NCBI GenBank assembly: GCA_964534325.1 | Contig: CAZHOR010000003.1 | Location: 16,664 to 80,663, forward strand | Direction: 5' to 3' | Length of the DNA: 64,000 bases | Origin: an uncultured archaeon | GTDB lineage: Archaea > Halobacteriota > Archaeoglobi > Archaeoglobales > Archaeoglobaceae | In this document: positions 6,650 to 53,173 of the stretch, in pieces | Layout: every line of letters begins with the position of its first letter | Position numbering within the stretch: the first letter of the stretch is position 1 | Program-made: the position numbers and the translations under genes | The notes under the pieces: model-generated | The model's database searches: none | What the model was told of the DNA's origin: nothing | Seen by the model: the letters and a program-made list of their open reading frames with translations, nothing else

Positions 6650-7235
6650 TCAATAGCTTTTGTTGGGTCTTGTTTGTCGAAGGCATCCTTCTATGTCCTC
6701 TATTTCGCGGGAGTATCTTCTGCATACTTCCAGGGCGAGCTGTTTTGGGTCTTCGTATCCTATTTCCTTTAGTGATGCATAATCATCGCTTTCCACGTTC
6801 AGGCCAAAGTGGATTTTGGCTGAAACTGGAGATATTGTCACTGTGCTCACGGATAGTTTCTTTCCGTTCCAGAAGAGGTCGCATCCTTTTCTGGAGATCT
6901 CGCAGTGCTCATCGATAATCTCCTGCACCACACAGGCAAGAAATCTTTGTCTGGTGCACAAGAGTCTGAGGCTGACCTCATCGAAATGCTCAACAATGAA
7001 GTGAAGCATTTGTGGAGAGTATATTTTTTGTTGCAAGATTGTGTTCTGGGGGAGAGTATATTTTTTGTTGCAAGATTGTGTTCTGGGAGTCAACTTGTGC
7101 ATCATTCTTGATATTGCATGTTCCAACGAAGGAGATAATACTATCTTCCTTTACACCTGTTTCATAGTACGCCCACAACGATTTGATCTGAGAACCATCA
7201 TACCCCAACTCAGAATCGATAAACACCCAATCCAT
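6650..7235 (-). pseudogene. Conserved archaeal small protein (DUF366-like) split by a 37-bp tandem duplication
   Basis: ORFs 6990-7235 and 6650-7126 overlap. Both encode QNTILQQKIYSP from the two repeat copies in different frames. Deleting one 37-bp copy fuses them into a single 182-aa ORF (MDWVFIDSELGYDGSQIKSLWAYY...SPQMLHFIVEHFDEVSLRLLCTRQR...). Confidence 0.65.
7014..7087. repeat. Exact 37-bp tandem direct duplication (2 copies)
   Basis: ggagagtatattttttgttgcaagattgtgttctggg occurs at 7014-7050 and again at 7051-7087 with no mismatch. Confidence 0.97.
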
Positions 7236-42183: not shown

Positions 42184-43233
42184 TTATTCGTTCTTGGTGG
42201 ATTTGGCTTTCCCTCTTCTCTCCGAGACTTTCCTTATTGAAGGCGTAATGATCGGTTTCTCTTTTAAAAGGCCCTCTGGTCTGTAGATCAGTATCAGGAT
42301 CAGCAGGAGTCCGAAGATCATGTATTCTACCCATTGCATCCCTACGGGTAACCAGCCGAACACCTCGTACTTGTAGGTCTCCAGCATGAACCTTATGATC
42401 ACAAAGGTGGAAACACCAGCAACGACACCCTTGGTGTTGCCCTTACCTCCTAGGAGTATCATGAAGATGGGGAAGAATGTCCACTCGATCTTGTTGAAGG
42501 ACTTGCCCATTATAGTCGATAGCTGTAGGGAAAGGAGTACACCTGCTACTGCGGCGATCGCTGAACCGAGCGCGACAGTTTTAATTCTTATCTTCATTAT
42601 GTCCTTTCCGTAGGCGGATACAACGTTCTCATTCTCTCTCATCGCTTTGAGAAGCCTTCCATAGGGTGACTGGAGCATCCTGTTGACGATGTAGTAAATG
42701 ATAACTGCAACGATGGAAATCACTATGGCGTAGCCGAGTATATTGAGCTCACCGGGAAGGAATTTGAGAACGTTGGGGGTCGAGACACCATAGTAGCCAC
42801 CTACTAAGGCAGGATGGTTTTTGCTGGCGATCCATGCCACCTCACTGATGGCCAGGAGCGTCAAAGCCAAATAAAGCTCTGAAAGCCTTGCGCTGGGCAA
42901 AATGGAAACAGCCCCTACCGCAGCGCCCAGAACTAGAGCCAAGGCAATGGCAGCCAGGAAAAAGGCCAGGCCAACCCAGGGATTCTGGGCAATCATGTCA
43001 TTCATAATGCCTTTTACCTGGCCACTTGCCATTGCGATGTCACCACCCACTCCGAAGTAGGCCATCATTAACCTGTTCATTATTCCCCCTACGGCTACAG
43101 CTCCCGCCAGAACGGCGAGGTTCCTGCCGAACTGGGGGATGCCACCGTAGCCGAACTCTATGTTCAGGCTGAGACCCACTATAAGGTATATGCCTATCCA
43201 GATCAGTATGCTCAGGACGAAGATGAACTCCAT
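42184..43233 (-). CDS. livM: Branched-chain amino acid ABC transporter permease (LivM type)
   Basis: 349 aa polytopic. GYGGIPQFG and LLGGKGNTKG are motifs of the LivH/LivM permease family. Confidence 0.85.
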   Translation of the reverse strand: MEFIFVLSILIWIGIYLIVGLSLNIEFGYGGIPQFGRNLAVLAGAVAVGGIMNRLMMAYFGVGGDIAMASGQVKGIMNDMIAQNPWVGLAFFLAAIALALVLGAAVGAVSILPSARLSELYLALTLLAISEVAWIASKNHPALVGGYYGVSTPNVLKFLPGELNILGYAIVISIVAVIIYYIVNRMLQSPYGRLLKAMRENENVVSAYGKDIMKIRIKTVALGSAIAAVAGVLLSLQLSTIMGKSFNKIEWTFFPIFMILLGGKGNTKGVVAGVSTFVIIRFMLETYKYEVFGWLPVGMQWVEYMIFGLLLILILIYRPEGLLKEKPIITPSIRKVSERRGKAKSTKNE

Positions 43234-44132
43234 TTGAACAACCTCCTCCAGTTAATTGACAGAATTCCTTTGGGAGCCAGGAACAGCACCGCTATAAGCA
43301 CGATCAATGAGACTAACCTGCTGTAAACGAGGACGTCCGGTCCAACTATTTTGGAGAGCTGGAAGGTTACGAAGGACTCGGAAATTCCAATGATGTATCC
43401 TCCGATTACTGCTCCAAATATTGTTCCCAGTCCACCAACTATGCTTGCGGCGATCACTGAAACTATTATCACGTCACCTACAAAAGGGTATATCTGCTGC
43501 TTGAAGGGCAGTAAGGCCCCGGCAACACAGGCAAAGCCTCCCGAAAGTGCCCATGAAACCAATCTGGTGGTCTCCACATTCACCCCCATCACCTGAGCGA
43601 GAGAAGGGTTCTCCATGGAGGCCCTCATGGCGACCCCAAATTTGGTCTTGAACAGGAGAACGTAAAGAGCAGAAAGCATTAAAACTATAACGATAACGGA
43701 AATTACAAAGACCCCCTGAAAGCTCCAGATAGGGAAATCATGAGGGGTGAAGATGAAGTTCTTGGCCGATTTCCTGGTTATGTTCTCCAATAAATCTGAA
43801 AATGCTCCTGCACCACCGTACAAAACAAGGTCTATACCAAGAGTGGAGATCATTAAGGTTATGATCCCTGCACCTCTGGAGATCAGGGGCTTTATAATTG
43901 CCAGATAAACCGCTAACCCCAGTATTCCCCCCAAGACAAAGACTAATGGGAGTGACATGTACGGATGGATATCTAAAACCCTGAAAAACGCAAGCGTCAT
44001 GTAACTGCCTACAACAGCGAAGGTACCTTGTGCCAGGTTGGGTACTCCGGTAGTGATGTATGTCATGGTCAGTCCAATGCTTATCAACACGATCAAGTTC
44101 GAGTATATTACTGCACCCTCTAATACAGCCAT
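43212..44132 (-). CDS. livH: Branched-chain amino acid ABC transporter permease (LivH type)
   Basis: 306 aa polytopic. GVPNLAQGTFAVVGSY and GGLGTIFGAVIGG motifs. Confidence 0.85.
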   Translation of the reverse strand: MAVLEGAVIYSNLIVLISIGLTMTYITTGVPNLAQGTFAVVGSYMTLAFFRVLDIHPYMSLPLVFVLGGILGLAVYLAIIKPLISRGAGIITLMISTLGIDLVLYGGAGAFSDLLENITRKSAKNFIFTPHDFPIWSFQGVFVISVIVIVLMLSALYVLLFKTKFGVAMRASMENPSLAQVMGVNVETTRLVSWALSGGFACVAGALLPFKQQIYPFVGDVIIVSVIAASIVGGLGTIFGAVIGGYIIGISESFVTFQLSKIVGPDVLVYSRLVSLIVLIAVLFLAPKGILSINWRRLFKWSSSSS

Positions 44133-44184
44133 GGTACCATCTCAAACCAAAAGTTTTTAAAAAGTTTAGGTTACGCTTTGACAC

Positions 44185-45447
44185 ATGGTAGGTAAAAAAT
44201 TATTGTTGTTGGTAACTGTTGTACTGGCAGCATCCCTAATGGCCTGTGCAGAGGGCCCGAGTGAGGAAGAGGGTACAACAGAGATTCCAATAGGCGCTCT
44301 GGTGGATCTATCTGGACCTTTAACCACGTATGGTAAGGATATTGAGACCACTACAACAATAGCTAAAGAAGAGATCAATGAATACTTTGAATCCCAGGAC
44401 ATGCCTTACAGGGTTAAAACATATACCGAAGATACCAAAGTAGATCCCACTGTATGCCTGCAAAAAATCCAGGCCCTCTACGGTAGGGACGTAAGGATGA
44501 TCGTTGGTCCTATGGGCAGTGGAGAACTGAGTAATGTAGCCAGTTACGTAGATGACAACAAGATACTGTTGGTCTCTCCGTCTTCGACTGCTGCACCGGA
44601 GATGATCGGTCTGAATCAGCCTGAAGATAAGAAGTACATTTTCAGGTTTGTAGCTACAGATGCTTTCCAGACCAGAGCCATTGCAGAGGTTGCCAAGGAC
44701 CAGGGTGTGAAAGCGGTGGTGATCACCCACATCGGAAACGACTGGGGTAAGGGACTTGACGAGTTCGGGACCCAGAGGTTTGAGGATGCTGGGATCGAAG
44801 TTGCTGGACATGTGGAGTACCCTGATCCTCCGCCTTCCGACTTCACCCCATACGTATCTACTATAGAAGATGATGTCGATGAGTTGCTGGATGAATACGA
44901 GCCAAACGAAATCGCTGTAGTGACATTCAGTTACGAAGAAGTGGGTACAATGCTTGCTCAGACCGACAGCAACTCAGTGCTAATGGACCTCATTTGGATA
45001 GGTTGTGATGGTACAGCGAAGAGTTCTAAGGTAACAGAAGACGTTCCAGACAAGGCCAACAAGGTAGGGCTCTTCAGCACCGTTTCTGAGATGAAAGGAA
45101 GAGCTTATGATGACCTTAACCAGACATATTACGAGAGGACCGGGGACTCACCAAAGGCATACGGTCTAAATGCCTACGATGGAGAATGGGTTCTGGCTCT
45201 GGCAGCCGCCCAGGTCCACCAGGAAACAGGTAGCTTCGACATCGACGAAATCTCCGAGACCATACCTGAAGTAGCTGAGAAGTACAGTGAAGGAGAATAC
45301 GGAGTGTATCCGGTCAGTGGCGCAGTTAAGCTGAACGAGTGGAATGATAGAGTTGTACCTCAGTTTGAGGTTTACAAAGTACAGGGTAGCAAGTGGATAG
45401 ACACTGGAACATGGTTCAATGAAAACGAAACAGTCGTCTGGGAGTGA
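44185..45447 (+). CDS. ABC transporter substrate-binding lipoprotein (Leu/Ile/Val-binding family)
   Basis: Lipobox-like LAASLMAC, then a type-I periplasmic binding fold (IGALVDLSGPLTTYG, IVGPMGSGE). Confidence 0.85.
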   Translation: MVGKKLLLLVTVVLAASLMACAEGPSEEEGTTEIPIGALVDLSGPLTTYGKDIETTTTIAKEEINEYFESQDMPYRVKTYTEDTKVDPTVCLQKIQALYGRDVRMIVGPMGSGELSNVASYVDDNKILLVSPSSTAAPEMIGLNQPEDKKYIFRFVATDAFQTRAIAEVAKDQGVKAVVITHIGNDWGKGLDEFGTQRFEDAGIEVAGHVEYPDPPPSDFTPYVSTIEDDVDELLDEYEPNEIAVVTFSYEEVGTMLAQTDSNSVLMDLIWIGCDGTAKSSKVTEDVPDKANKVGLFSTVSEMKGRAYDDLNQTYYERTGDSPKAYGLNAYDGEWVLALAAAQVHQETGSFDIDEISETIPEVAEKYSEGEYGVYPVSGAVKLNEWNDRVVPQFEVYKVQGSKWIDTGTWFNENETVVWE

Positions 45448-46207
45448 ACCCCTTCTAAAAACCCAAAATCTTTTCAAATTTTTTGATGGATTAAAGGCAC
45501 TGGATGGAGTAGATATTGGAGTTAAAGAAGGAGACATAACCCTTGTAATTGGGCCCAATGGAAGCGGTAAGACCACACTTATCAACTGTATCTCTGGTTT
45601 TTACCCTTCCAGTGGGGGCCATGTTTATTTTAATGGTGAAGATATCACCAATAAACCGCCACACTCCGTTTTTGAGAGCGGTATAGTCAGGACTTTTCAG
45701 ATACCACAACCCCTTAAGCTCCTTACTGTTCTGGAAAACCTGCTTATAACCGATTACAACCCGGGAGAAGGAATCCTCAAGAGCATGGGGAGGTCCTGGG
45801 AGTCTGTAGAGGAAGAGACGGTTGAAAAAGCTTTTGAGGTGCTGGAGTTTCTGGAGATAGATCATCTGTGGGATACCTTAGCGTCCCAGCTCAGTGGTGG
45901 ACAGCTCAAGCTGGTGGAAGTAGGGAGAGCGATGATGACTGATGCCAGGCTTGTGATCATGGACGAGCCCGTAGCCGGAGTCAATCCCTTACTGGCCAAA
46001 ACAATCCTGAACCGTATAACAGACCTCAAAAAGAGGGGCTACTCATTTCTCATAGTGGAGCACAGACTCGACCTGGTGCTTCCATACGTGGATTACATTT
46101 ACGTCATGGCCAAGGGCAAGGTTTTTGCCCAGGGCGTGGAAGAAGAGATAATGCAGAACAAAGAAGTTATCGAGGTGTATCTTGGTGATATACACGAAGA
46201 GCCTTAG
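45419..46207 (+). CDS. livG: Branched-chain amino acid ABC transporter ATP-binding protein (LivG type)
   Basis: Walker [10 protein letters not shown], signature LSGGQLK, Walker B LVIMDEP. Confidence 0.9.
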
Positions 46208-46895
46208 TGCCGGATACGGAGAAGTTAACGTTTTATTCGATATAGACTCTCAGATAGAGAAGAACAAGATAACTGCTATAGTGGGACCCAATGGTAGTGG
46301 AAAGAGCACTTATCTAAAATCGTTATTCGGTCTCACCACTATCTATTCTGGCAGGGTGTTCTACAAGGATGAGGATATAACGCGCGCACCTGCACATGAC
46401 AGGACTAAAATGGGGATCGCTTACCTTCCTCAGGTGGACAACATATTCAACAATCTGACGGTCAAGGAAAATCTGGTAATTGCCGGCTACACACTGCCAG
46501 AAGACGAGTTCGAGGAGAGAAAAGAGGTTTCGTTGAACACCTTCCCCGAATTAAAGGATTTCATGGACCGGAAAGCCGGCACACTGAGTGGAGGAGAAAG
46601 ACAGTTCCTGGCAACGGCCACAGCCCTTATAAGAAAGGCAGAAGTGGTTATGATGGACGAGCCTTCAGCTGCACTATCTCCCAAATTTGCGGAGATGATG
46701 TTTGACAAGGTAGTCGAATTAAGGGATGAGTTCAAACTTACTATAGCACTTGTAGAGCAGAACGTGGAAAAGGCCTTAGGGATAAGTGAGAACGCATACC
46801 TACTTATCAGCGGTAGGGTGGCCTTTGAAGGTAAATCGCAGGACCTATTAGAGCACGAGAAGTTCGAGAAGCTCTGCATGGGCCTCTTACAGTAA
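46182..46895 (+). CDS. livF: Branched-chain amino acid ABC transporter ATP-binding protein (LivF type)
   Basis: Walker [10 protein letters not shown], signature LSGGERQ, Walker B VVMMDEP. TTG/GTG start. Confidence 0.9.
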
Positions 46896-46909
46896 GGATC
46901 ACTTTTTGG

Positions 46910-46978
46910 TTTTGTGTTATTTTGTGTTAATCACCAAATTTTCCGGAGTTAATTTGTCTTTGACCTTTGTCTTTGACC
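46910..46978. repeat. Two pairs of short tandem direct repeats (iterons) upstream of the actin-like gene
   Basis: ttttgtgtta occurs twice (46910-46919, 46920-46929). tttgtctttgacc occurs twice (46953-46965, 46966-46978). All four share a TTTGT core. Confidence 0.8.
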
Positions 46979-47066
46979 TCTCTACTGGTTGGTTTAGTGT
47001 GATTCATGGGTAATTGACCATATCTTGCTTGCATGTATTTTCATTTTTGAAAGACATAAGAAAACA

Positions 47067-47076
47067 TTTTAATATT
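47067..47076 (+). promoter_or_regulatory. TATA box for a probably leaderless actin-like gene transcript
   Basis: ttttaatatt is centred about 27 nt upstream of ATG 47098, with no SD. Confidence 0.4.
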
Positions 47077-47097
47077 TTGAGCATTACCATTATAATC

Positions 47098-48174
47098 ATG
47101 AAATCGGTTGGATTGGATATCGGTACGAACTATACCAAAGCCACTATGGATGGTAAAGAAGTGATCTCATTTCCCAGCATAGTGGTCTATGGTGAAGAGA
47201 AGGACTGGAGTCTCACGGGTGAGAGCAAGGATATATACGTCGGTGAAGAGGCCCTGGCAATGGTCCAGAGCCTGGAAAACGTAGAAGCGATGAGGCCATT
47301 GCACGAAGGGCGTATAATGAATCAGTCATATATGGAACTGGCCAAACAGGCTTTAAAGATGATGGATGTTCAGCCTGACGTGATCGCAACTGGGATGCCC
47401 GTTAAATCATCAAAAAGTGAAAGAGAAGAGCTTGCCAAGGACATAAAGAAGGAATTGAATGCAGATGCCCTGATCTATCCCGAACCTGCTGGGACTCTGG
47501 CTCAGATGAACACTCAGACGGGCGTGTGCGTGGACATGGGATTTGGAACGACTGACATTGCAGTGCTCAATCAAATGGAATACGTCAGGGGAGATACTCT
47601 TCTTCTGGGGGTTGACTGGCTGTACAACAATCTGGAAGTTCTCATAAGGAAGAATTACGGGATCAATATCACTCCCGAAGAGATAACCAAGCTGTTGACC
47701 ACACCCAACTACGAGCTGGGTAGGATTAGAAGCGGTAAGACCATCAAAATATCCCACAAAGACGTCTCCGCTGAATACAACAAGCTGCTCAAGAACTGGC
47801 TGGACAGGATCGTGAGCAGGACCAAATTGATCGTTGAAGGGCTATCTACTGATATTGTAGACCAGATCGTTCTCACTGGCGGTGGTTCACTGCTTCCCGG
47901 CGTTTATGAAGAGTTCAAGAGCAATTTTGAGAGCATAGCCAATGTGGTCAAACCTGACAATCCAGTCTCCAGCAATGCCAGAGGATATTACCACCTCACG
48001 GAAAAGCTCTACAAGGCAAAAGCATCCTCCCAGAAAGTGAAGGAGTCAGTAGAGGAAACCAAACAGAAGGGCAAAGAAAAAGAGTCGGAAGAAGAGACCA
48101 AACAGAAGGGCAAGGGCAAGAAGAAAGAATCAAAAGAATCAAAGAAGAAGGAAGAAGTAGAGGTCAAGACTTGA
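47098..48174 (+). CDS. Actin-fold ATPase, ParM/Alp (archaeal actin-like) family, with a K/E-rich repeat tail
   Basis: Phosphate-1 GLDIGTNYTK, IYPEPAGT, phosphate-2 VCVDMGFGTTDIAV and adenosine motif IVLTGGGSLLPG. The C-terminal EETKQKGK repeats are lysine/glutamate rich. Confidence 0.75.
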   Translation: MKSVGLDIGTNYTKATMDGKEVISFPSIVVYGEEKDWSLTGESKDIYVGEEALAMVQSLENVEAMRPLHEGRIMNQSYMELAKQALKMMDVQPDVIATGMPVKSSKSEREELAKDIKKELNADALIYPEPAGTLAQMNTQTGVCVDMGFGTTDIAVLNQMEYVRGDTLLLGVDWLYNNLEVLIRKNYGINITPEEITKLLTTPNYELGRIRSGKTIKISHKDVSAEYNKLLKNWLDRIVSRTKLIVEGLSTDIVDQIVLTGGGSLLPGVYEEFKSNFESIANVVKPDNPVSSNARGYYHLTEKLYKAKASSQKVKESVEETKQKGKEKESEEETKQKGKGKKKESKESKKKEEVEVKT

Positions 48175-48195
48175 GTAGAAGCTGAATTCGGTTAA

Positions 48196-48804
48196 ATGAA
48201 AGTCACAGTTGACGTCCCGCCGGAAATTGAGAAGTTCCTTCTCAAGAAGTGCGAGAAGACCAAAACTGAGCCATCTGAACTAATAAAGTTACTGCTGGAG
48301 TGGTATTTCCTCAAGTTCAGGAAATCAAGAGGAGAAGGCAGTAGCAGCAGTAGCAGCAGTAGCGGGTTCCTCAAGATCGCCAACGAGTGCGCCATGGAAC
48401 GAGTGAAGAACTGTCGCTACAGTGATGGCAAAAATTGCGCCAGAGAAGTCTTTAACGACATAATGGCCGAGAAAGACCCGGAGCCCATTGTGCCATACAA
48501 ATGTTTGTTCTGCAACCATTTTATTGACCGGAGGGAGTCCAAAACAAAGCCAAAGACAAGAATAAAAGATTATACAGGTCAGAAAGAGGAAGATGCAGTT
48601 GACCAGACATACGAGGTCGCCAGAATAGCTGCCAAAATGGTGGTGGAGATGTACAGCGACAAGCTAAGCAATAACAGTAACAGTAGCAGTAATAGTAACA
48701 ATAGCAGTAGCAGTAATCCCGAAAAAGATTCGAACGAAATGGATGAGGTCGATCAAGAAGCGATAACCAAAAACAAAGTGGAAAATCTCCTGGAGAAATG
48801 GTAA
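48196..48804 (+). CDS. Ribbon-helix-helix (CopG/Arc-like) N-terminal domain protein with Cys-rich middle and acidic C-terminal peptide; candidate ParR-like adaptor
   Basis: MKVTVDVPPEIEKFLLKKCEKTKTEPSELIKLLLEWYF fits a beta-strand/helix/turn/helix RHH pattern. Poly-Ser (48340-48363) and Asn/Ser (48667-48717) linkers are present. Six Cys lie in CAMERVKNCRYSDGKNC...KCLFCNHF. The C-terminus is ...VENLLEKW. Confidence 0.5.
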   Translation: MKVTVDVPPEIEKFLLKKCEKTKTEPSELIKLLLEWYFLKFRKSRGEGSSSSSSSSGFLKIANECAMERVKNCRYSDGKNCAREVFNDIMAEKDPEPIVPYKCLFCNHFIDRRESKTKPKTRIKDYTGQKEEDAVDQTYEVARIAAKMVVEMYSDKLSNNSNSSSNSNNSSSSNPEKDSNEMDEVDQEAITKNKVENLLEKW

Positions 48805-48849
48805 AGATCGAAAAGTGTTAATAAAGATTTAGCTATTATTAATCCTTAT

Positions 48850-50103
48850 TTATTTACTCAGTTTTCTGGGGTCGGTTATCTCTCCATAGATGGCTGTTGC
48901 TGCCGCTGTTGCAGGTGAAACCAGATATATTTCACCTTGCGGGCTTCCCTGTCTGCCCACGAAATTCCTGTTAGAAGTTGATATGCTGACTTCGTTGGCA
49001 GCTATCAATCCGAAACTGCCTCCCATACACGGACCGCAGGAGGGATATTCCACTACGGCACCCAGCTCCACCAGAGAATCTACGATCCCCTCTTTTAACA
49101 GCTTCATGTACTCTGTTTTGGATGCAGGGATCACTATCAACCTGACATTGCGGGCGATACCTTCCCCTTGGAGCATGTCGGCAGCTATTTTTATGTCCTC
49201 GTATCTTCCGTTGGTGCAGGAGCCGATGAAAACCTGATTTACTCTGGTCCCTTCCACTTCCTGGACATCCACCACGTTATCTACGCTGTGGGGTTTTGCC
49301 ACCTGAGGAGGCATGTCTTTAACGTTCAGATCAACTCTCGTGTAAGCGGCATCTTCATCCGTTTTGAGATCGAACGGCTCCATGTTCAGGTAGTCGAATG
49401 TGGTCTTGTCGGGCTCGATAATCCCTGCTTTTCCGCCCATCTCGATGGCCATGTTGGACATGGTCAGCCTCTGACTCATGCTCATGTCCCTTAAAGCTTT
49501 ACCGGCATACTCACAGGCAGCATAATTGGCTCCGTTGCTTCCCATCATTCCGATCAATTTGAGAATGACGTCTTTACTGTAAACGTGCCTGTCAAGCGTC
49601 CCTTCGACCTCAAATCTGATGGTGTGGGGAACCTTGAACCATAACTTACCGGTGGCGAAAACAAAGCCCATGTCAGTGGAGCCTATACCGGTTGCAAAAG
49701 CTCCCAGAGCCCCATACATGCACGTGTGGCTGTCGGCACCCACCACCAGGTCTCCGGGTTTTACATGACTTTTTTCTACCATAATCTGGTGAGCAATACC
49801 CTCATTTATGTCGTAGTTAAGAATATTTTGCTCTTCAGCGAATTCTCTCAACTGTTTCTGGTTTTCTGCTGAATTGATGCTGTCTGCAGGTGCCTGATGG
49901 TCAAAGGCCATGATTATCTTTGAGGAGTCCCATACCCTGCCGTCTCCAGCGATTTCTCTGAAGGCTTTGATGGCAAGTGGCGCTGTGATGTCGTGAACCA
50001 TGGCCTTATCGATGTTCGCCAGTACATAATCGCCTGTTTTGACGTCTTCTCCAGTGGCTGAGGAGAATATTTTCTCTGAGATGGTTTTTGGATTAGAGGT
50101 CAT
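48850..50103 (-). CDS. Aconitase-family dehydratase large subunit (3-isopropylmalate dehydratase LeuC or homoaconitase HacA)
   Basis: [29 protein letters not shown] and PSCGPCMG are Fe-S ligand motifs. Start taken at MTSNPKT. Confidence 0.85.
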
Positions 50104-50211
50104 GCAATATCCCCACATAATATTGCATTATTTATCTTTTGCTGGAGTGATAGGTGCTGGAGTGGTGGGTTGTCAGCAAATTATTTATCAGTCCAAGATT
50201 TGGTTCCTATA

Positions 50212-51540
50212 ATGGACACGTTAATGGGAATGACCAGGAAAGGTGTACCTCCTGAATGGTTAAAAAAAGTCTCTGAGTATGAGGGTATTGGTTTAGGCAC
50301 ACTCACCAGCCTCATTTCCAGAGGCGAAGTTACAGTATTTAGAAATAATCTCAGGAATGATGATCTTGGTTTTGAGCCCAGAGCTGTGGGTAAAATGGTG
50401 TCCACCAAGGTTAATGCCAATATAGGCACTTCTGCTGATTATGTTAATGTTGAAGAGGAAGTTGAAAAGGCCAAAGTGGCTGAAAGATATGGTGCTGACG
50501 CCGTTATGGATCTATCCACCGGCGGCGATATAGATGCTATTAGAAAGGAGATAATAAGCTCGGTCAACATTCCGATAGGTACGGTTCCCATTTATCAGGC
50601 TGCCAGAGAGGCAGACGTTGTGGTGGATATGGATGAAGATGATTTCTTCAAGGTGGTGGAGAAGCACGCCAGGGATGGAGTTGACTTCATGACCATCCAC
50701 TCCGGGGTCAACTGGACCAGCATCGAACGCCTCAAGAAAAGTCAGAGACTGCTTGGGGTGGTAAGCAGGGGTGGAGCCATAACAGTTGGATGGATGCTCC
50801 ACAACGAGAAGGAAAATCCCTATTACAAGGATTTTGATTATCTACTGGAGCTTTTGAAGGAGTATGATGTGGCCATCAGCCTGGGAGATGCCTTTAGACC
50901 GGGCTGTATCCACGATGCCGGGGACAGGGTCAAGTTCACCGAATTCGTTCTGCTGGGAGAGTTAGCTCAGAAGTGCAGAAATGAAGGAGTGCAGTGCATC
51001 ATTGAAGGCCCGGGCCACGTCCCCCTTGACGAGATCGAGACTTCAGTAAGGGCAATGAAATCCCTCTCAGGAAACGCGCCCATCTACCTTCTCGGTCCTA
51101 TCGTAACCGACATCGCACCGGGTTACGACCACATCACCTCTGCTATTGGAGCGGCTATAGCAGGTATGCATGGAGCCGATTTCATTTGCTACGTAACCCC
51201 CTCAGAGCATCTGGCTCTCCCCACCGTAGAGGACGTGAAAGAAGGTGTCATCACATCCAAAATAGCCGCACACGCCACCGATCTGGTCAAGGACGGCCAA
51301 AAAGAAAGGGCAAGAAAATTGGATTACTCCATATCCCTAGCCAGAAAGAACCTTGACTGGGAATCCCAGTTCAAGCAGGCTCTAGACCCAGAAAAAGCGA
51401 AAAGTATATGGGAGAAAAGGAGATCCGGAAGTGAGACATGCTCCATATGTGGCGACCTGTGCGCCATAAAGCTGGTAAAAGAAGCCTTTGGAGACGAAAA
51501 AGATAAAGATAAGGACCATAGTGAGACGATTTGTTATTAA
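50212..51540 (+). CDS. thiC: Phosphomethylpyrimidine synthase ThiC
   Basis: VNANIGTS, DAVMDLSTGG, MTIHSG, SRGG, EGPGHVPL and the C-terminal CSICGDLCA cluster motif. The start is uncertain (TTG 50170 or ATG 50212/50227). Confidence 0.9.
   Translation: MDTLMGMTRKGVPPEWLKKVSEYEGIGLGTLTSLISRGEVTVFRNNLRNDDLGFEPRAVGKMVSTKVNANIGTSADYVNVEEEVEKAKVAERYGADAVMDLSTGGDIDAIRKEIISSVNIPIGTVPIYQAAREADVVVDMDEDDFFKVVEKHARDGVDFMTIHSGVNWTSIERLKKSQRLLGVVSRGGAITVGWMLHNEKENPYYKDFDYLLELLKEYDVAISLGDAFRPGCIHDAGDRVKFTEFVLLGELAQKCRNEGVQCIIEGPGHVPLDEIETSVRAMKSLSGNAPIYLLGPIVTDIAPGYDHITSAIGAAIAGMHGADFICYVTPSEHLALPTVEDVKEGVITSKIAAHATDLVKDGQKERARKLDYSISLARKNLDWESQFKQALDPEKAKSIWEKRRSGSETCSICGDLCAIKLVKEAFGDEKDKDKDHSETICY

Positions 51541-53173
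<1,633 letters not shown>

Follow-up and report, generated by a model that had tools for sequence, protein, structure and literature searches.

The window analyzed here is a 64-kb stretch of DNA from an Archaeoglobus-type archaeon, and the locus with which we are concerned, at 46896–48804, contains a gene for an actin-fold ATPase followed, on the same strand, by a gene for a second protein, termed here the partner (Table 1). The two genes are preceded by a spacer of 202 nt, which begins after the stop codon (at 46895) of an ATP-binding cassette (ABC) ATPase gene and which contains two tandem duplications and a promoter. The original prediction for this locus was of a ParMRC-like segregation module in which the duplications were the centromere (parC), the ATPase was a ParM, and the partner, with a ribbon-helix-helix (RHH) N-terminus, was an adaptor of the ParR type. 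Our own proposal, on which our judgement is about evenly balanced, is that the pair constitutes a chromosomal two-gene operon, vertically inherited and characteristic of the class Archaeoglobi, that encodes an actin together with its cognate adaptor in a manner resembling ParM-ParR. The evidence for this proposal comes from the linkage of the genes, from the fold of the actin, and from the pattern of conservation in the partner; the duplications in the spacer have no part in it.

Table 1. Features of the actin–partner locus (positions are those of the window; a point in the strand column means that no strand is assigned)
Feature	Position	Strand	Remarks
Tandem duplication, TTTTGTGTTA x2	46910..46929	.	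Perfect; in a T-rich stretch right after the stop codon of the ABC-ATPase gene
Tandem duplication, TTTGTCTTTGACC x2	46953..46978	.	Perfect
Promoter block, from BRE/TATA (GAAAAC-ATTTTAATATT) to ATG	47060..47097	+	Only conserved part of the spacer
Gene for the actin-fold ATPase	47098..48174	+	358 aa; Pfam, AlphaFold2, and Foldseek; family specific to Archaeoglobi
Disordered C-terminal tail of the actin, acidic then polybasic	48010..48171	+	pLDDT <50 from residue 313
Gene for the partner (adaptor candidate)	48196..48804	+	202 aa; no Pfam family
RHH-like N-terminal domain of the partner, aa 1–42	48196..48321	+	Strand KVTVDV, helix A, P26-S27 turn, helix B
Central Cys domain of the partner, aa 66–113	48391..48534	+	Putatively metal-binding; from the alignment
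Conserved helix of the partner, aa 134–157	48595..48666	+	Invariant A142, A146, V149, Y153, L157
C-terminal amphipathic peptide of the partner, AITKNKVENLLEKW	48760..48801	+	Follows an acidic linker; proposed actin-docking helix

The linkage of the two genes was followed in one genome per GTDB species, which gave 58 Archaeoglobi loci (individual loci are referred to below by L-numbers), 57 of them with the downstream region present. In 46 of these 57, the next gene after that of the actin is, on the same strand, the partner gene, and in about half of the linked loci the stop and start codons overlap by 4 nt (ATGA). The arrangement is also apparent from the consecutive accessions of actin and partner in A. 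veneficus (AEA47068/AEA47067) and A. profundus (ADB58677/ADB58676). The three metagenome-assembled genomes (MAGs) closest to the window contain three actin paralogs each (L001/L006/L018 in CAZQTT, L002/L004/L057 in JAWODI, and L003/L017/L024 in JBKHKH), and paralogs 1, 2, and 3 are, respectively, about 95%, 74%, and 59% identical to the window actin. Paralogs 1 and 2 each have a partner of their own and paralog 3 has none; since groups 1 and 2 are sister clades in a neighbor-joining tree, the pair has been duplicated as a unit. The actin loci that have no partner form three clades, and these are therefore to be explained by secondary loss of the partner. The expected linkage of orthologs of the ATPase to the downstream gene is upheld, whereas their expected accompaniment by repeats is not.

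The actin gene starts at the ATG at 47098 (47099 is out of frame), and its product has the nucleotide-binding motifs that had been attributed to it. The phosphate-1 motif (DIGTNYTK), the phosphate-2 motif (D146-x-GFGTTD153), and the adenosine motif (TGGGS) are intact in the window actin and invariant across the alignment of 120 homologous sequences; at the variable position of phosphate-2, the window has DMGFGTTD and most relatives have DIGFGTTD. The best Pfam match is to MreB_Mbl (79.9 bits, 2e-22, for a cut-off of 27), and ALP_N also passes (53.7 bits, 3.5e-14, for a cut-off of 26.3). MreB-like_C, the Ta0583-type domain, falls just below its cut-off in the window actin (25.9 versus 27.8), and several members of the family exceed it. 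The AlphaFold2 (AF2) model, based on the 120 homologs, has a predicted local distance difference test (pLDDT) score of 85 and a predicted template modeling (pTM) score of 0.79, the tail past residue 313 excepted. A Foldseek search of the PDB with this actin gave, as its top 50 matches, only polymerizing actins, with E values of 1e-20 to 1e-17; MreB/Mbl headed the list, in which MamK, actin, Ta0583, and the pCBH ParM also figured. A profile of 20 family sequences, run against the PDB, matched MamK best (9e-12), then MreB (3e-11) and Bacillus ParM (5e-9), with Ta0583 at 4e-6 and actin at about 4e-6. Both kinds of search confirm that the protein groups with the filament actins and not with the sugar kinases or Hsp70.

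An important question is to which of the known actins this protein belongs. The NCBIfam models for MreB, ParM, MamK, PRTRC-D, and salactin match it far below their curated cut-offs. For MreB, the scores are 77.6 versus 293 bits (PRK13927) and 61.3 versus 365.75 bits (TIGR00904); for ParM, the score is lower than for either MreB model, at 50.8 bits versus 417 (PRK13917), and membership of the ParM family is not supported. For salactin, the scores are 18.0 versus 27.1 bits (Pfam PF25229) and 20.3 versus 400 (NCBIfam NF053533), in a match that covers the C-terminal 50 residues alone, and for volactin (PF25216) the window actin gives no match and members of its family give 26–28 bits versus a cut-off of 35. 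The identity to bacterial MreB is about 22–28% and to plasmid ParM/StbA 25–27%. The homologs listed are 49–96% identical to the window actin, and those with names all come from Archaeoglobi, including Archaeoglobus veneficus, A. profundus, A. sulfaticallidus, A. neptunius, and Geoglobus, except for one MAG binned as Methanomethylicota. Outside this group, the identity drops to around 25%, and the open reading frame (ORF) translations read for such distant relatives (in Njordarchaeota, Nitrososphaerota, and Clostridia) revealed no comparable adjacent partner. Judged by sequence, this actin is better described as a member of a family of its own, which is distinct, specific to Archaeoglobi, and about equally far from MreB, MamK, ParM/Alp, and Ta0583, than as an ortholog of MreB, ParM, salactin, or volactin.

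The names found in databases do not alter this assignment. The family is entered as “rod shape-determining protein” (MreB), and the best PHROG match of the actin is to phrog_691, a “partition protein” (3e-31). The latter label is not diagnostic because the phage matches of the actin in tblastn are to MreB-like proteins of 21–30% identity and because one of these phage proteins, ORF207 of 0305phi8-36, is labelled both “mreB-like rod determination protein” and “partition protein”. “MreB” and “partition protein” are, in other words, annotation labels and not functional evidence.

Among the other euryarchaeal actins encoded by chromosomes are salactin (Halobacterium) and volactin (Haloferax). Salactin has been reported to have homologs across Methanotecta, including Archaeoglobi, and MamK was named as its closest family (PMC10746226); MamK is also the best match by sequence of the Archaeoglobi actin in the PDB, and a distant relationship between the two families may exist. 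The same study proposed a role for salactin in DNA partitioning but found neither an adaptor nor an attachment site, and the synteny was poor (PMC10746226). The long, charged, disordered tail of salactin is N-terminal, whereas the charged tail of the Archaeoglobi actin is C-terminal. Another archaeal actin, Ta0583 of Thermoplasma, shares with the Archaeoglobi family the combination of ALP_N with the archaeal MreB-like_C domain and turns up in both sequence and fold searches, but the sequence match is weak (with the E value given above) and Ta0583 has no known partner gene.

The C-terminal tail, which is acidic and then polybasic (...KKGKKK), was found on the actin in all of the loci in which the gene is complete, including those without a partner. 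Within this tail, the EETKQKGK repeat that had been singled out earlier is a real duplication, restricted to the lineage of the window.

The partner belongs to a small family. A word-indexed search gave 41 homologs, of which those with names are all from Archaeoglobi (counting the GTDB phylum label Halobacteriota) and include the cultured Ferroglobus placidus, and of 1.84 billion representative proteins searched with a profile, only 11 matched at E<=0.001, essentially the same family plus fragments. Searches of the PDB by sequence, with the full-length profile and with the N-terminal profile, gave nothing. Four conserved blocks, with variable linkers between them, stand out in the alignment; they are the RHH region, the Cys domain, one helix, and the peptide at the C-terminus. 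The six cysteines (C19, C66, C73, C81, C103, and C106), the Ser/Asn-rich linkers, and the acidic amphipathic C-terminus (...KVENLLEKW) described in the original prediction are all present; the poly-Ser and poly-Asn/Ser stretches are, in fact, inserts that are confined to the lineage of the window and that derive from tandem DNA repeats. The AF2 model of the whole partner is poor, with a mean pLDDT of 53.

That the N-terminus of the partner has an RHH fold, as proposed originally, is probable from its sequence and its model. In hhalign, the N-terminal profile matched CopG with a probability of 84.6% (E 6.9e-6), in the register of strand, helix A, turn, and helix B, the CopG sequence having been verified against PDB entry 1b01; the match to Arc is no more than marginal. 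When 21 members were scanned, the Pfam families RHH_1, RHH_5, RHH_9, NikA-like, and RepB-RCR_reg gave matches below threshold (E 0.009–0.08) in 1 to 4 of them. The AF2 model shows no helix in residues 1–8 and then helices at 9–22 and 26–43, and Foldseek superposed this region on the CopG–DNA complex (1ea4) at 1.3 Å over 37 columns and on Arc (1bdv) at 1.1 Å over 42 columns, with E values above 1. The Foldseek list consists mostly of RHH proteins (among them VapB, YiiF, CdbA, and Reg576), again all with E >1. The residues invariant in this region of the partner are E12, L15, C19, P26, W36, Y37, and F38.

The CopG alignment also bears on DNA binding. It places K/R2 and T/S4 of the partner opposite R4 and T6 in the strand of CopG, and S27 opposite S29 at the start of helix B. 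We take R4, T6, and S29 to be the positions at which CopG contacts DNA in the CopG–DNA structures; because the aligned residues fall at these positions, retention of DNA binding by the partner is favored. A relationship with ParR itself, which had been suggested, is not seen: against R1 ParR, verified beforehand as a ParR-family protein, hhalign gave a probability of 0.06%, with no detectable homology.

The central domain is characterized by the invariant residues C73, C81, C103, and C106 and by an invariant S76-D77-G78. It gives a weak NCBIfam match to a CxxC zinc-binding family (E 0.025), its model is of low confidence (pLDDT around 62–66), and it is, from the sequence, probably metal-binding. 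An unrelated protein of 510 aa, P0175, contains five tandem repeats of ECGYSDGAKIGKAFL.E.EK, which resemble the invariant C-x-YSDG-x2-C segment of the partner, a hint that the motif may form a small structural unit in its own right.

The C-terminal region of the partner is otherwise variable, and the peptide at its end is the most conserved stretch within it. This peptide was found in all 44 of the partners translated; its consensus is KVKKLLExW, and in 41 partner sequences W202 is invariant and L198 is conserved in at least 90%. A helix is predicted at 192–201, and the spacing of the hydrophobic residues 195, 198, 199, and 202 (i, i+3, i+4, i+7) is that expected of an amphipathic helix.

Upstream of the pair, the BRE/TATA element occupies 47060–47076, and its TATA box is centered about 27 nt ahead of the actin start codon, in agreement with the original prediction. 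The block of around 40 nt from this element to the ATG does not differ between the window, L001, and L002 and is nearly unchanged in L003 and L005, and the remainder of the spacer has diverged. A TATA-like element occurs at an equal distance from the ATG in essentially every related locus printed, and this constant distance fits with an actin mRNA that is leaderless or nearly so. The conserved block is a candidate for an operator.

How might the two proteins work together? The steps that we infer are filament formation, docking of the peptide, DNA binding, and the carriage of a cargo. The product of the first gene, a filament-type actin-fold ATPase, would polymerize, and the RHH domain of the partner would dimerize and, from its sequence, would probably bind DNA. 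In ParMRC systems, the C-terminal helix of ParR docks on ParM, and in Thermoproteales, arcadin-2 reportedly acts on crenactin through its C-terminal peptide; by analogy with these systems, the C-terminal helix of the partner would dock on an actin protomer or on the end of a filament. This docking would either regulate polymerization or couple the filament to an object held by the RHH domain, most likely a DNA site, and that site may include the conserved promoter of the operon itself, in which case the operon would be autoregulated. The analogy suggests that the pair works, in its logic, like ParMR and like arcadin-2 and crenactin.

The likeness to these systems has its limits. ParMRC (R1 ParM/ParR/parC and those of pSK41, AlfAB, and Alp7AR) also consists of a gene for an actin-fold ATPase followed in a tight operon by a gene for a small adaptor, and the adaptor there combines an RHH-type N-terminus, which is probable for the partner as well, with a region that is acidic and flexible and with an amphipathic peptide at the C-terminus; the promoter, too, is perhaps autoregulated. 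Unlike these, the Archaeoglobi operon is archaeal, chromosomal, and vertically inherited throughout a class, with no conserved iteron array found; its actin is far under the ParM cut-off and has a polybasic tail, and its partner has an additional four-Cys domain and no detectable homology to R1 ParR. Crenactin and arcadin-2 likewise form a chromosomal pair in Archaea in which the product of a neighboring gene acts via a C-terminal peptide, but crenactin is a near relative of eukaryotic actin, RHH and Cys domains are both lacking in arcadin-2, and the system is crenarchaeal; no similarity in sequence was found between it and the Archaeoglobi pair. A parallel in gene content is offered by the chromosomal ParMR systems of bacteria (CorMR of Anabaena and the cParMR of Desulfitobacterium and Clostridium), in which a chromosomal actin is followed by an RHH adaptor whose C-terminal peptide is essential and in which the function is not necessarily plasmid segregation. 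These systems are recognizably derived from ParM and ParR, whereas no sequence relationship with the Archaeoglobi pair has been shown. Anabaena CorMR is a chromosomal ParMR that controls cell shape and in which the ParR homolog has lost its DNA binding (bioRxiv 10.1101/2025.06.27.661541). ParMs are distinguished by a closed beta-barrel domain (PMC12270681). By sequence, then, membership of ParM, ParR, MreB, salactin, or volactin is not supported for the Archaeoglobi proteins.

The filaments may either move DNA, as in ParMRC, or be organized for some other purpose, as in CorMR; the polybasic tail and the paralogs keep the latter alive. That a chromosomal actin machine of Archaeoglobi moves or positions DNA by means of a new family of actin and a new class of adaptor, the cargo being the chromosome or a specific site on it, is a tentative idea, which we consider possible rather than probable.

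Several observations weigh against an operon of actin plus DNA-binding adaptor. The closest hidden Markov models and structures for the actin are those of MreB and MamK rather than of ParM. Support for the RHH domain consists of three independent lines, each of which is weak alone: the Pfam matches are below threshold, the Foldseek matches have E >1, and the model of the partner has a pLDDT of 53. Neither the spacer alignment nor the survey of 59 upstream regions revealed a conserved repeat array near the operon, and no operator motif common to the promoters of partner-bearing loci is evident beyond BRE/TATA. The actin can function without a partner in cis, given that three clades have lost it, and up to three paralogs per genome is an unusual number for a dedicated chromosome-segregation device. 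Finally, the polybasic tail of the actin could mediate association with the membrane rather than with DNA.

The alternative that best survives, although we regard it as rather unlikely, is based on some of these observations. Here, the pair would be a repurposed cytoskeleton like CorMR, acting in cell shape, division, or the envelope; the partner would tether or organize the filaments at a site other than DNA, such as the membrane, its RHH domain would serve for dimerization or autoregulation alone, and the polybasic tail of the actin would bind anionic lipids. The precedent is the Anabaena system, and a chromosomal, vertically inherited, class-wide system with multiple paralogs per genome would be in keeping with it, as would a polybasic tail on every actin, even on those without a partner, and MreB and MamK as nearest neighbors in structure and profile. 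However, the partner starts directly at the RHH strand and has no counterpart of the amphipathic N-terminal helix of CorR, and no membrane-binding element is evident in it; K/R2 and T/S4 are conserved opposite CopG R4 and T6, which we take to be the positions that read DNA. Moreover, Archaeoglobi are irregular cocci without peptidoglycan, in which the guidance of wall synthesis in the manner of MreB is unlikely.

Another possibility, which we consider improbable, is that the partner regulates polymerization by sequestering or capping the actin, as arcadin-2 is said to do with crenactin via its C-terminal peptide, and that it also represses its own transcription, without carrying any cargo. The conservation of the promoter block, alone among the upstream parts, and the loss of the partner in three clades would be consistent with this. 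There is also a precedent in Cb-cParR, which behaves as a depolymerization factor (PMC12270681). Against it, an architecture of RHH plus Cys domain exceeds the needs of a simple sequestering peptide. The regulator and the adaptor are inseparable by computation.

The original prediction itself, in the form of a full ParMRC cassette in which the RHH protein binds the repeats at 46910–46978 as parC and the system serves to segregate the chromosome or an element that had once been integrated, now seems very improbable. In its favor, the order of repeats, actin gene, and RHH gene is that of parC-parM-parR in R1, and the two pairs of repeats are present where described and are perfect. They are also more than an artefact of composition. 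When the 202-nt spacer was subjected to 5000 dinucleotide-preserving shuffles, which contain no model of replication slippage, 0.34% had one perfect tandem duplication with a unit of at least 10 nt and none had two; in the whole window, there are four such duplications, two of them in this spacer. This result, together with the count for the window, indicates that the repeats are non-random.

These repeats are nevertheless not conserved. The spacer alignment showed that neither duplication is kept in L001 and L002, where the actins are 96% and 95% identical to that of the window and where the strand of the partner N-terminus is identical (L001) or differs by K2R alone (L002). Short tandem repeats do occur upstream in both, as this reading might wish, but they differ in sequence (AAGTCCT x2.4 in L001 and an unrelated TTTCAGT x4 in L002). 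The whole upstream spacer of L005 is only 42 nt long. Tandem repeats of any kind were found in 10 of 59 upstream regions, their sequences being unrelated to one another, and were absent from the other 49, and neither the TTTTGTGTTA nor the TTTGTCTTTGACC unit has extra copies in the window above the chance expectation. Because of this absence from close relatives, the census of 59 regions, and the lack of extra copies, the notion of a conserved centromere is rejected: the sequence comparison makes the repeats no conserved parC, the iterated centromere expected beside such an operon.

What, then, are the repeats? There are just two copies of each, and they lie in a T-rich stretch immediately past the end of the upstream operon, a place where oligo-T terminators would be expected in archaea. 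Four further tandem DNA repeats are found within the coding sequences of the locus; they encode the EETKQKGK duplication of the actin tail and, in the partner, the poly-Ser and poly-Asn/Ser inserts. From their sequences, the spacer repeats are probably recent slippage duplications in a T-rich, terminator-proximal region, for which a lineage-specific role may exist. The region from 46910 to 48717, with two such duplications in the spacer and four in the genes, all lineage-specific, is a hot spot of short tandem duplications. The longest in the window lies elsewhere, at 7014–7087, and is a perfect duplication of 37 nt (GGAGAGTATATTTTTTGTTGCAAGATTGTGTTCTGGG x2).

The setting of the locus likewise speaks against a mobile or formerly mobile cassette. 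The six flanking genes that were profiled include those of an ABC transporter (a solute-binding protein and two ATPases), that of a LeuC/HacA of the aconitase family, which is encoded on the opposite strand, and that of ThiC. The flanks are, as originally described, housekeeping genes, and no plasmid, virus, or other mobile-element genes were found near the locus. The order liv-actin-partner-leuC-thiC is kept down to 74% protein identity, and in two related loci inspected in detail, the pair is surrounded by ordinary cellular genes. No relatives of the actin or the partner were found in IMG/VR, and PADLOC gave no match for either. Against plasmids, the partner gave no match, and the actin matched only bacterial MreB and ParM/StbA, at 25–28% identity. 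Carriage of the pair on a plasmid, a prophage, or another low-copy replicon finds no support in these flanks, this synteny, and these searches.

The last alternative, the least probable of all in our estimation, is that the actin is a bona fide MreB and that the RHH gene, coding for a small regulator or resembling an antitoxin gene, is unrelated to it and merely adjacent: it has on its side the database name, the best Pfam match (MreB_Mbl), and the position of MreB at the top of the Foldseek list, but the curated MreB models are widely missed, the identity to bacterial MreB is as low as stated above, there is no adjacent toxin-like gene, a functional coupling is suggested by the conservation of the partner's C-terminal peptide, by the overlaps of 4 nt, and by the co-duplication, no mreC, mreD, or rodZ was recognized among the ORFs translated for 43000–53000, which were not profiled individually, and neither these genes nor wall-synthesis genes were present in two related loci for which there is Pfam annotation.

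Some further observations concern the surroundings of the pair. In the window, the actin and partner ORFs share a reading frame, with only TGA, six sense codons, and TAA between them. That they do so is probably coincidental since related loci overlap by 4 nt in another frame. Paralog 2 adjoins genes for a KaiC-like ATPase and of the type IV pilus type. In 24 loci from several clades, although not in the window, the partner gene is followed on the same strand by a gene encoding around 277 aa (for example, at L008:7513-8346 (+)), the product of which resembles, very distantly, the F420-oxidoreductases of the Mer/LLM class; it has no Pfam match, and its NCBIfam match to Mer (2.5e-8) falls far short of the cut-off. 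This gene is probably no more than a stable chromosomal neighbor. In one of the clades without a partner, a Cys-rich ORF of 65–73 aa (FRRPAC..GCCFKCVSGLCPFGYD..DCFP) adjoins the actin gene, at L010:7101-7301 (-), L009:6744-6965 (-), L013:6416-6613 (+), and L016:7210-7422 (+). This ORF has no Pfam match and no detectable similarity to the partner, and it could be a replacement partner or a syntenic neighbor.

We return to the preferred reading, an operon of an actin and its cognate adaptor. To our knowledge, chromosome segregation in Euryarchaeota is largely unexplained, and archaeal actins other than crenactin are without known partners. In our search of the literature, we found neither an archaeal actin described together with an RHH adaptor nor a description of this Archaeoglobi pair, and the architecture of the partner, with its RHH region, four-Cys domain, and Trp-terminated peptide, is without a described counterpart. 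The annotation “rod shape-determining protein MreB”, which is widespread for these proteins in coccoid archaea that lack peptidoglycan, is hereby corrected. The logic of an actin plus an RHH adaptor would exist outside bacteria and plasmids, and its origin by ancient transfer or by convergence is possible. Should the filaments indeed move DNA, this would be the first segregation system of the ParMR type (type II-like) in Archaea and the first adaptor to be identified for a euryarchaeal actin, and it would suggest the identity of the attachment site proposed for salactin-like filaments. The locus provides a concrete, testable pair of an actin and its partner, present throughout the class and in the cultured A. 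veneficus and A. profundus, the proteins of which, coming from thermophiles, should be suited to biochemistry and structural work, and it thus supplies a testable candidate for the actin-based handling of DNA in Euryarchaeota.

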